Assembly (NCBI GenBank): GCA_964422835.1 | Contig: CAYRCR010000004.1 | Coordinates: forward strand, 1 to 57,807 | Origin: an uncultured Gammaproteobacteria bacterium | GTDB lineage: Bacteria; Patescibacteriota; Microgenomatia; Daviesbacterales; UBA10151 | Direction of reading: 5' to 3' | DNA: 57,807 nucleotides | In this document: piece by piece, positions 40,239 to 42,997 of the stretch | Layout: every line of letters begins with the position of its first letter | Position numbering within the stretch: the stretch's first letter is position 1 | The notes under the pieces: generated by a model | Seen by the model: only the letters and a program-made list of their open reading frames with translations | The model's database searches: none | Told to the model about the DNA's origin: nothing | Translations under genes and position numbers: made by a program

Positions 40239-40616
40239 ATGACAGAAATAAATAAAATGAGGACGCAAGAACAACTTGAACGAGATTTAAAAAGTGTGAG
40301 ATGGAGGAAAGAGGAATTGAAGCAACCACTCCCTCGGATTTGTAATTTGTCATATCGGGAACAAATTACTACCCAGGTGAGTACATGTGAAGTAATGGAA
40401 CAGGTGTTAGAATATGTGCTTGGTCATAGACAGACATTACCTCAGGTACTTCTGGATACAGGGCTGAAAGAAACATCTGTTGCTCTGGAAGCTATTTTAG
40501 AAGGAGATCCCCCTGCTGCTGTTAATATTGGCGATAGGCGGATTCCTTTAAATGTTGCAGATGATTTCAAGGGGTTAAAACTACCTGTAATTGGAAGAGG
40601 GGATTTTAATATTTAG
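40239..40616 (+). CDS. groESL-embedded cassette ORF c1 (125 aa), unknown function, C-terminal '...VIGRGDFNI' module
   Basis: The ATG lies 1 nt after the groES stop, behind GGAG. The C-terminal 35 aa are homologous to c5. Confidence 0.6.
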   Translation: MTEINKMRTQEQLERDLKSVRWRKEELKQPLPRICNLSYREQITTQVSTCEVMEQVLEYVLGHRQTLPQVLLDTGLKETSVALEAILEGDPPAAVNIGDRRIPLNVADDFKGLKLPVIGRGDFNI

Positions 40617-40632
40617 AAGGGATAAAATATGG
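40584..40632 (+). repeat. 49-bp exact direct repeat (c1 3' end plus initiation module), partner at 42017..42065
   Basis: 'CCTGTAATTGGAAGAGGGGATTTTAATATTTAGAAGGGATAAAATATGG' is identical at both sites. Weaker similarity extends about 43 bp upstream. Confidence 0.9.
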
Positions 40633-41072
40633 CAGAAAGATTGACAACATTTGAAATTCCGGCTAGATATGAAAACTTGGATGTCTCTGACCTGGAGTGC
40701 CGGCGCGACGAGTTGTGGGGGGAAATATATGATGGTTGTTCAGGTCTATCTTTTAGTGACCCCACCCTAGGTGAGCTTGCTCTGCAAACAGAACAAAATA
40801 TTGCATATTTAGAACTAAAGGCAGTTTTGGTTGTAAAAGGAGGAAGGCAGAGGGCAGCAGATTACCTAAATGCTGTTGTTATAGATCCTCTCCGTGAATC
40901 TTTGGCAAAAATAAACGGAATCGGGGGAATTCCAGATGCATCGACGAGCCGTTTACTAGGGAGAGTTCCTCGAGATGGTGAAATATTGGGTGGGCCGGTG
41001 AGAATTGGATTTAACCAAGATGGACAAAGAATAGATGGCTTATCACCAATGTATCCTTGCCCGTGGAGATAG
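40629..41072 (+). CDS. groESL-embedded cassette ORF c2 (147 aa), unknown function
   Basis: It is preceded by 'AAGGGATAAAATATGGCAGAAAGATTGAC' and starts 'MAERL'. Confidence 0.6.
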   Translation: MAERLTTFEIPARYENLDVSDLECRRDELWGEIYDGCSGLSFSDPTLGELALQTEQNIAYLELKAVLVVKGGRQRAADYLNAVVIDPLRESLAKINGIGGIPDASTSRLLGRVPRDGEILGGPVRIGFNQDGQRIDGLSPMYPCPWR

Positions 41073-41091
41073 TAAATAAAAAGGATAAAAT

Positions 41092-41358
41092 ATGGCAGAA
41101 AGATTGACTGATGAACAAAGAGCGAGTTTTGAAGCTTTCTTTGAGCAAGAAATAGCAACTGCGAGAAAAAATACAAGGGCCAGTATTGACCCATATGGAT
41201 CAGTCTGGCTCTCCAACACTCCTGAGCAGCAAATAATGACCGGTTTATTAAATATTCAAGAAGGTTTACGTCTTGCCTTAGGAAAAGTTTCAATCGAGAA
41301 TATCGTTGTCCATCGTACGGATGGAGATTTTCCAATTAAACCTAAGGAGGGGAAATAA
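41092..41358 (+). CDS. groESL-embedded cassette ORF c3 (88 aa), unknown function
   Basis: It is preceded by 'AAAGGATAAAATATGGCAGAAAGATTGAC' and starts 'MAERL'. Confidence 0.55.
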   Translation: MAERLTDEQRASFEAFFEQEIATARKNTRASIDPYGSVWLSNTPEQQIMTGLLNIQEGLRLALGKVSIENIVVHRTDGDFPIKPKEGK

Positions 41359-41362
41359 AAAC

Positions 41363-41659
41363 ATGGCAGAAAGATTTGAAATAAAGAGAACATCGGAAGA
41401 AATAGCATCGGTATTTGATGCTACCAAAGCGCAATTTGAAAGTCTCAAAAAAGGGCCAACTGATTCTGCGATGGGAGAAGTTGTTGGATTCGGACTGGAT
41501 GCAACATTTGCGGGGATATTAATGGAGGCCAGATTGAGAGAAAGAATAGAAGTACTGCGGTTTTTGCAGGGCGAGGAAAATGAAATTTCCAGTTTAATTT
41601 CGGTAATGAATTATATGAAAACAAAAGAATCCGCTAGTGTTGGTAAAGAAGAAGGATAA
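41363..41659 (+). CDS. groESL-embedded cassette ORF c4 (98 aa), unknown function
   Basis: I prefer the internal ATG at 41363 ('ACATGGCAGAAAGATTTG', giving 'MAERF'), which lies 4 nt after the c3 stop. Confidence 0.55.
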   Translation: MAERFEIKRTSEEIASVFDATKAQFESLKKGPTDSAMGEVVGFGLDATFAGILMEARLRERIEVLRFLQGEENEISSLISVMNYMKTKESASVGKEEG

Positions 41660-41662
41660 AGT

Positions 41663-42049
41663 ATGGCAAATCAAGAAAGAAATTTTAGAGCAGCAGAGCC
41701 AGAAGGTATTAGAGAATCAATGACAAGTCTTAGGGATAGAATGGACGAGATAGTATCTTTTGTAGAACGAATGGAAATGTCGCTTGCCATCCCCCTAGTG
41801 TGTAGTGGAAGGGTGCCACTTACTGACTTGCAAACCTGGCAAAAATTAGGGTATGAACATGCAAGGCATTTTACTGATGTTTTGGATGCGCTAACTGAAG
41901 AGGTGTTTGAACAGCCGGCAGAAGCTACGATAATAGGTAATCCTCCGGAGGCCATAGAAGTTGGTGGACGGAAAATTCCTGTAAATGTGGCAGATTCTTT
42001 CAAGGGGTTGAAACCGCCTGTAATTGGAAGAGGGGATTTTAATATTTAG
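41663..42049 (+). CDS. groESL-embedded cassette ORF c5 (128 aa), unknown function, C-terminal '...VIGRGDFNI' module
   Basis: It is preceded by 'AAGGATAAAGTATGGCAAA'. Its C-terminus 'GRKIPVNVADSFKGLKPPVIGRGDFNI' parallels c1 'DRRIPLNVADDFKGLKLPVIGRGDFNI'. Confidence 0.6.
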   Translation: MANQERNFRAAEPEGIRESMTSLRDRMDEIVSFVERMEMSLAIPLVCSGRVPLTDLQTWQKLGYEHARHFTDVLDALTEEVFEQPAEATIIGNPPEAIEVGGRKIPVNVADSFKGLKPPVIGRGDFNI

Positions 42050-42065
42050 AAGGGATAAAATATGG
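42017..42065 (+). repeat. 49-bp exact direct repeat (c5 3' end plus initiation module), partner at 40584..40632
   Basis: The sequence is identical to 40584..40632. Confidence 0.9.
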
Positions 42066-42394
42066 GAGAAATATCAGACGGCGAAAAAGCATTAACAGAT
42101 CTGCAAAAAATTGATCTTGTGCGTCAGGTTGATCGTGCAGAGACGCGGGTAAAAGTTGATATTAAAGCTATAGTAGGAGCTCCTTTTCATGCAGATTTGT
42201 TGCTGCCGCTGGTTTTAAGGCTTAAGCATTTGGAAATGTTTGGGCTCGGTTTAGGGCTTGGTTGTGGAGATTTGCCTGCCAGATTTGCGGAAAATGGTTT
42301 CCTTTTGGGAACAGGAATAAAAGTAAGAGATGAAGCCGCTATTTTACGAGAGAGGGAAGAGAGAGCGAAAATGAGGGAGGTAAATAGCCCGTAA
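42062..42394 (+). CDS. groESL-embedded cassette ORF c6 (110 aa), unknown function
   Basis: It is preceded by 'AAGGGATAAAATATGGGAGAA' and contains a 'GLGLGLGCG' segment. Confidence 0.55.
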   Translation: MGEISDGEKALTDLQKIDLVRQVDRAETRVKVDIKAIVGAPFHADLLLPLVLRLKHLEMFGLGLGLGCGDLPARFAENGFLLGTGIKVRDEAAILREREERAKMREVNSP

Positions 42395-42413
42395 TTTTTT
42401 AAAAGGATAAAAT

Positions 42414-42977
42414 ATGGCAGACCAAGAAAAACAATTATTAGCAATAGATCCTACAACTGTATGCCCTGGAAAAGTGATGGGGCGTGATAACTACGCCATC
42501 GAAGATCTTCCGGTAGCTAAAGATCGACAAGGGCGGTGGTATTTCTGCCGGGGTTTGGTCACTGAAAGGTTGAATCCTTATAATAAATCAACAGGACAAT
42601 TGGAATGGGTTCAACCAGGCACTAATTTACTGGACAGAGCTAAAGCAGCATATGACAAGATGTATCAAGACCCAAGAGGCCGGGTTGTGCTGGGGTTAGC
42701 GGCAGAAGTAGTTGGGTTGGGTATGACGGGGGATTTGAGATACCCGCCGGATAATCTAGGAATATGGGTGTTAATTGGAGAAGAAGATGGTTTGGAAAGT
42801 GCGGCAGCAAGGGTTGAGTCTGATGGGGGAGCAGATTTTATGTATATGGATATTAAAAAGATTAGGGCAGGAGAAGAACAAGGGTCAAAAGATGTAGCGG
42901 CTAGTTATGAAGCTTCTGCGCGAGGGCCGTGGGGATGTCAAGTAAGAGGATGTGAACCAGAACACAGAAGATGGTAA
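42414..42977 (+). CDS. groESL-embedded cassette ORF c7 (187 aa), unknown function
   Basis: It is preceded by 'TTTTTTAAAAGGATAAAATATGGCAGA', almost the same as the groEL leader. Confidence 0.6.
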   Translation: MADQEKQLLAIDPTTVCPGKVMGRDNYAIEDLPVAKDRQGRWYFCRGLVTERLNPYNKSTGQLEWVQPGTNLLDRAKAAYDKMYQDPRGRVVLGLAAEVVGLGMTGDLRYPPDNLGIWVLIGEEDGLESAAARVESDGGADFMYMDIKKIRAGEEQGSKDVAASYEASARGPWGCQVRGCEPEHRRW

Positions 42978-42997
42978 GTTTTTTAAAGGGATAAAAT

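Follow-up and report, generated by a model that had tools for sequence, protein, structure and literature searches.

A seven-cassette array between groES and groEL marks a clade-wide hot spot of small-gene gain, shuffling and loss

groES and groEL are among the most conserved bacterial gene pairs and are normally adjacent. On contig CAYRCR010000004.1 (GenBank assembly GCA_964422835.1; positions 1 to 57,807 of the forward strand, a stretch of 57,807 nucleotides (nt) called the window in the following) the two genes are 2,760 nt apart, and the interval holds seven small open reading frames (ORFs), c1 to c7, which we refer to as cassettes. Comparison with related loci shows that the groES|groEL junction is a hot spot of small-gene gain, shuffling and loss throughout a clade of ultra-small groundwater bacteria, the window being its largest example and not the isolated oddity as which an initial annotation of the window had treated it. 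With a confidence only a little above even we read the junction as an insertion and duplication hot spot that gathers small orphan genes, each endowed with a local copy of a translation-initiation module, and the array in the window as the largest one known. The host is a groundwater bacterium of the candidate phyla radiation (CPR), most probably Candidatus Daviesbacteria, its GroEL placing it beside this group.

Results

Seven cassettes separate the chaperonin genes

The Cpn10 and Cpn60 genes lie on the same strand with groES preceding groEL, which is the order found in relatives (Table 1), and the encoded proteins are 64-70% (GroES) and 80-81% (GroEL) identical to their counterparts in two related loci, L010 and L011. 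The usual adjacency within tens of nt is absent from the window locus, its 2,760 nt comparing with a gap that never exceeds 228 nt in 73 genomes of other lineages. Full-text literature searches yielded no description of genes inserted between groES and groEL, in keeping with the initial annotation, which had regarded the arrangement as unusual. Its coordinates, i.e. a distance of 2.76 kb with seven same-strand ORFs of 88-187 amino acids (aa) and gaps of 1-20 nt, were confirmed, the spacers from groES to groEL being 1, 12, 19, 4, 3, 12, 19, and 20 nt in this order. Plus-strand ORFs of at least 80 aa fill 96.9% of positions 40239-42997, whereas 1,000 shuffles that preserve the dinucleotides gave 3.5% on average and 33% at most. 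According to their sequences the cassette products have masses of 10-21 kDa and acidic isoelectric points (4.7-6.1), and are hydrophilic without any transmembrane stretch.

In the GroES proteins of the clade the conserved Cpn10 core is preceded by an N-terminal extension, basic and variable, of some 15-18 residues; it reads MGRKPKTIPYTLNPKPS in the window (39902-39955; about 17 aa) and MSKVKKESRVKSQESR in L010.

The groES|groEL junction is variably occupied across the clade

Scanning metagenomes with a GroES profile specific to the clade yielded 80 loci, 67 of which contain both genes and a GroEL that is at least 70% identical. The gap between groES and groEL is at most 12 nt in 24 of these loci and ranges from 81 to 2,760 nt in the other 43. 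Removal of duplicate organisms left about 63 loci, some 23 of them without and 40 with an insert; as three of the 40 inserts are palindromic elements resembling miniature inverted-repeat transposable elements (MITEs) and not ORFs, about 37 loci carry cassette ORFs. The large gaps are almost wholly filled by one to four ORFs on the same strand, and the seven of the window are the maximum. No insert was found in loci with a GroEL less than 70% identical, including those of distant Patescibacteria, or in other phyla. The comparison of related groESL loci that had been proposed along with the initial annotation thus reveals that presence, absence and copy number vary, from 0 to 7 cassettes.

L010 and L011 illustrate the two states of the site. 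In L010 the two genes are 3 nt apart, with the groEL Shine-Dalgarno sequence located in the last groES codons (TTGGAGTAAAATATGGCA), and in L011 a 68-aa ORF lies between them, which, like c1, starts with MTE and otherwise shows no significant similarity to it. Occupied and empty sites are interleaved on the GroEL tree, with L113 (4 nt) next to L135 (771 nt) and L131 (4 nt) next to L101 (332 nt), indicating many gains, many losses or both.

Cassette content differs almost completely between lineages, and nearly all cassettes are orphans. Of the 65 cassette ORFs of the clade (61 unique), 46 are singletons in phmmer searches and also in jackhmmer searches with decoys. When the 49 cassettes of the relatives were searched in Pfam, PHROGs and PADLOC a strong Pfam match was obtained for one, L137_1. 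This gene (L137 930-1286) encodes a four-helix bundle protein of the 23S_rRNA_IVP / Avd-like type (Pfam E = 1.6e-29; PHROG 'Avd protein of DGR', i.e. of a diversity-generating retroelement, E = 9e-8) and lies between groES and groEL with GAGTCAAGAGTCAAGG-type flanks.

The MITE-like palindromic elements (GTCATYCTGAGSG...GATTCTTC...CAGAATGACAAG) occupy the same junction in L138 (5097-5203), L109 (9292-9411) and L120 (9295-9422), and are also located just upstream of cassettes in L091 (1-70) and L096 (448-505), implying that the site attracts more than one kind of insertion; none was found in the array of the window. The smallest insert, in L114 (9326-9400), comprises 81 nt with a 24-aa ORF (MAERKPEPEKMSVEDIFEKKGNGN) whose start resembles that of the 65-aa cassette L094_1 (MAEDEPRRMSVEEIF...) and which may be a truncated or nascent cassette.

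Each cassette starts with a copy of a translation-initiation module

The sequence GGATAAARTATGG has six exact matches in the 57.8-kb window, all of them at the starts of c2, c3, c5, c6, c7 and groEL. The number of matches expected in the window is 0.34 even with up to one mismatch allowed, and the observed count was reached in 0 of 100 shuffles, corroborating the A(A/G)GGATAAA(A/G)TATGG motif that had been noticed initially at five cassette junctions and groEL. Alignment further confirmed that the junction ahead of c4 carries a diverged copy (AAAACATGGCAGAAAGATT). The upstream sequence said to be shared by c7 and groEL was recovered at the c6|c7 and c7|groEL junctions, which have TAA-(T/G)TTTTTTAAA(A/G)GGATAAAATATGGCA in common. 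A repeat search (repeats D2-D4) and alignment showed that the similarity of the junctions extends from the upstream stop codon to 15-40 nt into the next coding region.

A(A/G)GGA or GGAGG is situated 7-9 nt ahead of the ATG of every cassette and of groEL, and for c1 a GGAG within the 3' end of groES would be used. The short distance between stop and start codons together with a Shine-Dalgarno sequence in or after the upstream gene is the pattern that a translationally coupled polycistron would display. A crude scan with uncurated starts found no Shine-Dalgarno sequence in front of most other genes of the window, and many genes have a TATAAT-like box upstream, no more than about 10-20 nt from the ATG. 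Their mRNAs may accordingly be leaderless or have very short leaders, and the Shine-Dalgarno-bearing module is not simply the default of the genome.

The module recurs in the clade in a related form. M-[A/T]-E (ATG-RCA-GAA) is the start of 29 of the 61 unique clade cassettes vs 3 of 385 background ORFs from the same loci, the consensus of the cassette starts being agggaAAAAAT-ATGgCAGAAa and the conserved hallmark AAGGAGAAAAAT-ATGRCAGAA (M-A/T-E). The modules resemble each other more within than between arrays (9.2 vs 11.1 mismatches per 24 nt; permutation p ~0.001). The variant GGATAAAAT is private to the array of the window, groEL included, other arrays having GGAGAAAAT or GGAAAAAAT, and in most other arrays the start region of groEL is unlike that of the cassettes. 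Module copies are homogenised within one array, and the proposal that the start module of groEL had been reiterated holds for the genome of the window, where the copies are identical to that of groEL, and fails for most related arrays, where the module differs from groEL's.

Similarity reaches beyond the module into the N-termini of several products. As noted initially, c2-c4 begin with MAER(L/F). The N-terminal 14-15 aa of c4, MAE(R)(K)FEIK(K/R)T..EI, are shared with the single cassettes L102_1 and L145_1, and c5 and c7 agree at 7 of their first 13 residues (repeat D4).

Table 1 Coordinates of the groESL locus, its cassettes, junctions and repeats in the window
Feature	Position	Strand	Description
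Promoter-like site before groES	39843-39871	+	TTGACA, 17 nt, TAAAAT; 11/12 consensus matches; consensus match only
groES (Cpn10)	39902-40237	+	111 aa; PF00166, E = 7e-26
c1	40239-40616	+	125 aa; starts MTE 1 nt past the groES stop; C-terminal 42 aa paralogous to c5
Left c1/c5 direct repeat (D1)	40488-40641	+	154 nt at 79%; 97-nt core 40542-40638 at 92%
Deleted segment	40552-41984 (approximate ends)	+	1,433 bp, missing from the three-cassette allele
Junction c1|c2	40607-40645	+	TAG-AAGGGATAAAAT-ATGGCAGAAAGATTGAC; reference copy of repeat D2
c2	40629-41072	+	147 aa; orphan; start MAERL
Junction c2|c3	41070-41108	+	repeat D2, 87% identity
c3	41092-41358	+	88 aa; orphan; start MAERL
Junction c3|c4	41341-41376	+	diverged; Shine-Dalgarno GGAGG in c3 3' end, then AAAAC-ATGGCAGAAAGATT; D3, 95% over 19 nt
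c4	41363-41659	+	98 aa; start MAERFEIKRT
Junction c4|c5	41646-41700	+	AAGGATAAAGT-ATGGCAAATCAAGAA...; like c6|c7 for 49 nt (D4, 76% identity)
c5	41663-42049	+	128 aa; mosaic of c7-like N-terminus (MANQER...), unique middle and c1-like C-terminal 42 aa
Right c1/c5 direct repeat (D1)	41921-42074	+	core 41975-42071
Junction c5|c6	42040-42078	+	near-identical to c1|c2 (D2, 85% identity)
c6	42062-42394	+	110 aa; orphan; start MGE
Junction c6|c7	42392-42430	+	TAA-TTTTTTAAAAGGATAAAAT-ATGGCAGAC
c7	42414-42977	+	187 aa; sole cassette family seen in several organisms
Junction c7|groEL	42976-43014	+	TAA-GTTTTTTAAAGGGATAAAAT-ATGGCAAAG
groEL (Cpn60)	42998-44617	+	539 aa; PF00118, E = 1e-74

The array changes by duplication and recombination at repeated junctions

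The direct repeat D1 of c1 and c5 contains a gene tail, a junction and the first codons of the next gene, and c5 itself is a mosaic that begins like c7 and ends like c1. Contigs L173, L174 (from two samples) and L175 carry a three-cassette allele from the same population, in which groES is followed by a c1/c5 hybrid, c6 and c7. Relative to the seven-cassette allele a deletion, with the c1 and c5 repeats as substrates, has removed c2, c3, c4 and most of c5. The crossover took place within 7 nt of identity, upstream of several c5-specific bases and outside the exact repeat of 49 nt, the place at which a mis-join by a de Bruijn graph would be conceivable, and both halves of the deletion allele are about 100% identical to the seven-cassette allele, indicating that the deletion is recent and real.

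Relics of duplicated ends were identified in the relatives. L092 has a relic groEL start between two cassettes (ATGGCTAAAATTTTGAAATTTATTTAA, reading MAKILKFI*). L096 contains, after a MITE-like half-element, a second copy of the groES 3' end before its cassette (GACGACCTTATGGCAATTTTGGAGGAATAAT-ATGGCAGAA), which is 92-96% identical to the groES tails of other loci, and in L105 groES-tail-like sequence lies ahead of the second cassette. The array thus changes by duplication and recombination at its repeated junctions.

We considered whether the junction might instead be the recombination site of integron-like mobile cassettes, i.e. of circular promoterless units captured behind a strong resident promoter. 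Integron arrays resemble the array of the window in having promoterless ORFs on one strand behind one resident promoter, a variable cassette number (0 to 7 among the relatives) and a repeat at every boundary, and direct module copies of 20-30 nt do flank the cassettes, those at c6|c7 and c7|groEL being near-identical including the stop codon. In integrons, however, the repeat at the 3' end of a cassette is attC, an imperfect inverted repeat of about 55-140 nt, and intI, a tyrosine-recombinase gene, is adjacent, whereas the window has neither intI nor attC or attI and what recurs at the boundaries of its cassettes is a translation-initiation region of about 20-40 nt. The 1-20 nt spacers are too short for attC-like palindromes, the repeat search revealed no inverted repeats at the junctions, and precomputed Pfam hits contain no integrase or recombinase within 10 kb on each side. 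An IS200-type transposase and a Phage_int_SAM_1 fragment 7-8 kb upstream in a strain variant are unrelated to the array. Moreover, cassettes are not shared, as c1/c5, c2 and c7 were not found elsewhere in the genome, in other taxa or in viral contigs, the c7 family has a fixed position, and the rearrangement observed is ordinary recombination between diverged repeats. We regard integron-like mobility as very unlikely. Of the earlier suggestion of selfish cassettes hitch-hiking on an essential operon, hitch-hiking persists as the best reading and the mobile selfish system, with no integrase nearby, does not.

The cassettes have the properties of genes but match no known family

A codon-usage score derived from 37 non-cassette genes of the window was positive exclusively in the annotated frame of all seven cassettes, with log-odds of 0.18-0.40; the training genes themselves had 0.29 +/- 0.08. 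In the remaining five frames of each cassette the score was mostly negative and always below that of the annotated one; for c2, which scored +0.18 in frame, all five were negative. The G+C content decreased from the first to the third codon position (GC1 > GC2 > GC3) in all seven cassettes.

Searches in Pfam, NCBIfam, PHROGs and PADLOC gave no convincing family for c1-c7. In PHROGs there was nothing at E < 0.1, PADLOC matched neither c1-c7 nor the 49 cassettes of the relatives, and no toxin or antitoxin Pfam match was obtained. Sequence searches of the Protein Data Bank (PDB) with c2, c4, c7 and a c7-family profile returned marginal matches only. The AlphaFold2 models of c7 (with two homologues) and of c1 (with c5) both had a predicted local distance difference test (pLDDT) score of 54, the c1 model consisting of three helices and a low-confidence tail, and a Foldseek comparison of the c7 model with the PDB gave no match with E < 0.1. 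Profile searches, including AlphaFold2/Foldseek where run, therefore agree with the initial statement that none of the seven belongs to a recognised family. The searches also detected no likeness in sequence or fold to co-chaperones, the GroES mobile loop or known GroEL binders.

Residues 10-68 of c4 (41390-41566) show a weak resemblance, seen in several searches, to the C-terminal H-domain of [FeFe]-hydrogenase (CpI residues 380-438), with about 37% identity by eye; this likeness is unconfirmed (NCBIfam E = 4e-5, Pfam E = 0.027, PDB E = 0.18) and covers no catalytic residues or cofactor ligands. L102_1 and L145_1, the N-terminal relatives of c4, have no Pfam hydrogenase match at E <= 0.01.

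An indexed search of 5.8 billion proteins gave no relatives outside the species for c7, c1/c5 and c2, the sole match of c2 being its own cluster; c3, c4 and c6 were searched against the family libraries and 1.65 Mb of related loci. Scans of viral contigs (IMG/VR) for the c7 and c1/c5 families were likewise negative, as was a metagenome scan with the c7-family profile. In combining a coding signal with the lack of a homologue outside a narrow lineage, the latter within the family libraries and the 1.65 Mb for c3, c4 and c6, the cassettes qualify as orphan genes. They do not look like phage morons or a prophage, having no PHROGs match and, for the c7 and c1/c5 families, no IMG/VR relatives, and being flanked by housekeeping genes. 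The flanks of the array (murB-groES ... groEL) are conserved.

Among the seven, c1 and c5 are the only related pair, with 69% identity over the C-terminal 42 aa, all other pairs giving E > 0.04. The array is hence not one of tandem paralogues with full-length homology, and the likeness within c2/c3/c4 and between c5 and c7 is short and N-terminal. Three further origins were examined and rejected. The cassettes are not degraded copies of groEL or groES, since tblastx and blastn show no similarity beyond the start module and the relics; their bodies have not diverged by frameshift, since all homologous pairs give their best alignment in frame and none shows homology in a shifted frame; and they are not all cryptic paralogues, since jackhmmer runs with 100 decoys per sequence linked no further cassettes.

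The c7 family is conserved in position and probably evolves under constraint

Exhaustive phmmer searches with c7 identified two distant homologues, P0006 (40% identity, E = 4e-17) and P0007 (32%), both encoded directly upstream of the groEL start on short Logan contigs, L091 and L092, respectively; L092 reaches from the groES end across four cassettes into groEL. The family has six members from five organisms (c7, L091, L092, L140_2 and L105_2, plus the internal paralogue L092_2), L105_2 having been added by profile search (E = 3e-4). The cassette next to groEL belongs to this family in 5 of 5 organisms, and the family keeps 30-40% identity where GroEL differs by about 20%. As these organisms belong to different parts of the GroEL tree the family is probably old.

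The ratio of nonsynonymous to synonymous substitution rates (dN/dS) was 0.24 for L096_1/L157_1, 0.25 for L091_1/L092_4, 0.44 for c7/L091_1, 0.20 for L092_1/L151_2 and 0.35 for the c1/c5 tail, i.e. 0.2-0.5 over the five cassette families measured and 0.25-0.5 in the c7 family, all of these being upper estimates as dS is saturated. In the genome pairs concerned dN is higher for the cassettes than for groEL by a factor of 2.6-4. Of the cassettes of the window the measurements cover c7 and the c1/c5 tail, and the identity of 99.9-100% among contigs L001-L009 (see below) provides no within-species polymorphism usable for dN/dS. As to selection or conservation in relatives, on which the initial annotation had been made to depend, cassette families with homologues show it, and for c1-c6 the searches described above found no orthologue outside the species. 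These values suggest that the c7 family is held by purifying selection and hence does something; the other cassettes may be young genes or mere passengers.

The same data bear on the possibility that the cassettes are translated filler, i.e. junk derived from duplications, MITE-like elements and stray fragments in which selection would maintain nothing but openness, coupling and the start module, thereby sparing groEL from polarity, and whose products would be functionless. Turnover is extreme, since genomes with 75-93% identical GroEL have unrelated ORFs and singletons make up 46 of the 65 cassettes, conservation within a cassette is highest in its start module and first 5-15 codons and not in its body, MITE-like elements and the 23S-IVP-type gene occupy the same site in relatives, a natural allele deletes c2-c4, and AlphaFold2 confidence is low for c1 and c7. 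However, the families with homologues have dN/dS values of 0.2-0.5 and are in frame, the c7 family has kept its identity and position across about 20% GroEL divergence, and codon usage and the GC1>GC2>GC3 order are like those of host genes. In addition, the 24 of 67 loci without an insert show that deletion is possible, and reduced genomes should purge 2.8 kb of useless DNA. We consider filler rather unlikely.

The position of the c7 family directly upstream of groEL is also what would be expected if the cassettes encoded dedicated chaperonin-linked proteins, be it modulators, adaptors or obligate clients of GroEL/GroES, for example proteins retuning the cage or blocking its use by phages, whose stoichiometry is fixed by position and whose diversification reflects an arms race or host-specific adaptation. 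The inserts are found exclusively between the two chaperonin genes in many genomes, all products would fit into the GroEL cage by size, and the c1/c5 tail, 69% identical over 42 aa vs about 33% in the helical N-terminal parts, has the pattern expected of a docking peptide. Against such a role speak the missing likeness to GroEL partners and the lack of matches to defence or phage families, a third of the related genomes does without any cassette, and cassette content is almost wholly different between genomes in which GroEL and GroES are strongly conserved. A dedicated chaperonin function thus appears quite unlikely.

Transcription signals and neighbourhood of the array

A sigma-70-like promoter is predicted upstream of groES (Table 1). 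No terminator-like site was found on the plus strand within 40239-42997, no CIRCE element with up to 3 mismatches in the whole window and no Rfam family in 39500-45000. The heat-shock transcript of the initial annotation was therefore an assumption, since a sigma-70-like promoter only is seen and HrcA/CIRCE control is not, a result that concerns CIRCE and not sigma-32. Given the 1-20 nt spacers and the Shine-Dalgarno sequences 7-9 nt ahead of the start codons, a single mRNA is the simplest reading, and the nine genes would be transcribed together from the predicted promoter upstream of groES.

About 2 kb upstream of groES the precomputed Pfam hits of the identical contig L001 indicate a gene pair for a PhdYeFM-type antitoxin (weak hit) and a YafQ-type toxin (37136-37420 and 37430-37687). 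An intergenic element of about 83 nt, CTTGAAGTGAGAAATG(T/A)GAAGTGAGAA(C/T)TTGAAATCTTGAATTCAAGAATTCTTGACATCAAAAAT..., is present directly 3' of groEL (44621-44703) and, with 93% identity, at 13881-13963, 3' of a gene ending at 13895; it contains an internal palindrome and may be a terminator or a repeat of the repetitive extragenic palindromic (REP) type.

Several assemblies contain the same array

c7 is carried by 18 contigs from ENA groundwater assemblies, JGI, Logan and the NCBI genome GCA_000997225.1. In nine of them that were read as DNA (L001-L009, from several assemblies, GCA_000997225.1 among them) the array is 99.9-100% identical to that of the window and not rearranged. We asked whether a chimeric or mis-joined contig might have placed foreign DNA between groES and groEL, for which the short repeats in the region and an odd contig fusing a c1 fragment with an epimerase gene could be invoked. 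Set against this are the 18 contigs with c7, the unrearranged array in the nine copies from several assemblers and projects, and the related organisms that independently show arrays at the same site. The concern about chimerism raised with the initial annotation is thus answered at the level of contigs, and an assembly artefact is hardly credible.

The odd contig, L090 (JGI; 1884-2225), has groES and c1 residues 53-100 joined to the C-terminal part of another protein, followed by epimerase, transketolase and glycosyltransferase genes, and lacks groEL. Either the assembly is chimeric here or the genome has really been rearranged, with the break falling within c1. The strain variant L003 has an IS200-type Y1 transposase and the N-terminal fragment of a phage integrase at 1619-2985 (about 32.4-35.6 kb of the window), where the window has genes for a VanW-domain protein and a solute-binding protein.

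Discussion

Taken as an insertion and duplication hot spot, the junction would have let the array grow in place, specific to the lineage and with quick turnover. Ribosomes would re-initiate, or translation would be coupled, at the module copy of each cassette, and this module-by-module translation would keep ribosomes on the mRNA through to groEL. The products, predicted to be small (10-21 kDa), acidic, soluble and cytoplasmic, would be made at levels tied to those of the chaperonin, and passenger or accessory genes could owe their persistence to a site at which expression is strong and insertions are tolerated. Passenger genes of fast turnover that exploit the expression of the chaperonin operon are our best functional reading.

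Several points weigh against this interpretation. Transcription and translation of the array are deduced from sequence alone, and a weaker promoter-like match inside c7 (42556-42584) could transcribe groEL by itself. The dN/dS values stem from cassettes with detectable homologues, which introduces an ascertainment bias, and their dS is saturated; orthologues of c1-c6 outside the species were not found, in global searches for c1/c5 and c2 and in 1.65 Mb for c3, c4 and c6. The deletion allele shows that some cells can do without c2-c4 and most of c5, the homogeneity of the modules within an array fits gene conversion as well as recent duplication, and the GroEL tree on which occupied and empty sites interleave is a quick neighbour-joining tree that carries no support values.

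A bolder idea is that the locus is a chaperonin-coupled system of hypervariable proteins, whose cassettes act as modulators, adaptors or passengers of the cage, for instance as decoys or gatekeepers that deny phages the chaperonin or re-target it. The M-A/T-E start and the c1/c5 tail would then be tags, and duplication at the junction would provide a gene nursery within the operon under diversifying pressure. We put this forward as a speculation with a rather small chance of being right.

The hot spot may be compared with known arrangements. Like the canonical groESL operon the locus contains both genes intact, in the usual order and on one strand, with a sigma-70-like promoter before groES, and in a third of the clade the genes are adjacent and apparently coupled in translation, as exemplified by L010 with its 3-nt gap and the Shine-Dalgarno sequence in the groES 3' end. 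Unlike the canonical operon the window has 2.76 kb with seven extra cistrons, and no CIRCE was found. With phage morons and 23S rRNA intervening-sequence proteins (IVPs) the cassettes share that small accessory ORFs ride on a very strongly expressed host unit, and an IVP/Avd-like gene does lie at the junction in L137; the ORFs of the window, however, match none of these, have no promoter or terminator of their own, are chromosomal and are apparently inherited vertically. Orphan genes and hypervariable islets likewise combine conserved flanks with a content that varies between close lineages and consists of small, fast-evolving proteins without homologues, but the islet of the window lies inside an essential two-gene operon and not between operons, its members have a conserved start module with M-A/T-E, and relics testify to growth by junction duplication. 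The kinds of components, namely orphan islet genes, translationally coupled polycistrons and hitch-hikers in highly expressed loci, are known. What appears to be new is the location inside the chaperonin operon, the start-module hallmark common to the cassettes and the fact that a series of intermediate stages has been preserved.

The series includes vacant sites, a mini-ORF of 24 aa, remnants of duplicated gene ends, arrays with between one and seven genes and a segregating deletion allele. It makes the locus a natural model, replicated across the phylogeny, of how orphan genes originate and become fixed inside an essential, highly expressed operon. If the cassettes were filler after all, the locus would show how selection against polarity creates and maintains open reading frames. 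The module itself is a compact and apparently efficient initiation signal in genomes that largely lack Shine-Dalgarno sequences. Finally, the junction offers about 60 uncharacterised proteins whose expression is probably tied to that of the chaperonin, and some of them, being conserved in position, may reveal accessory biology of the CPR chaperonin.

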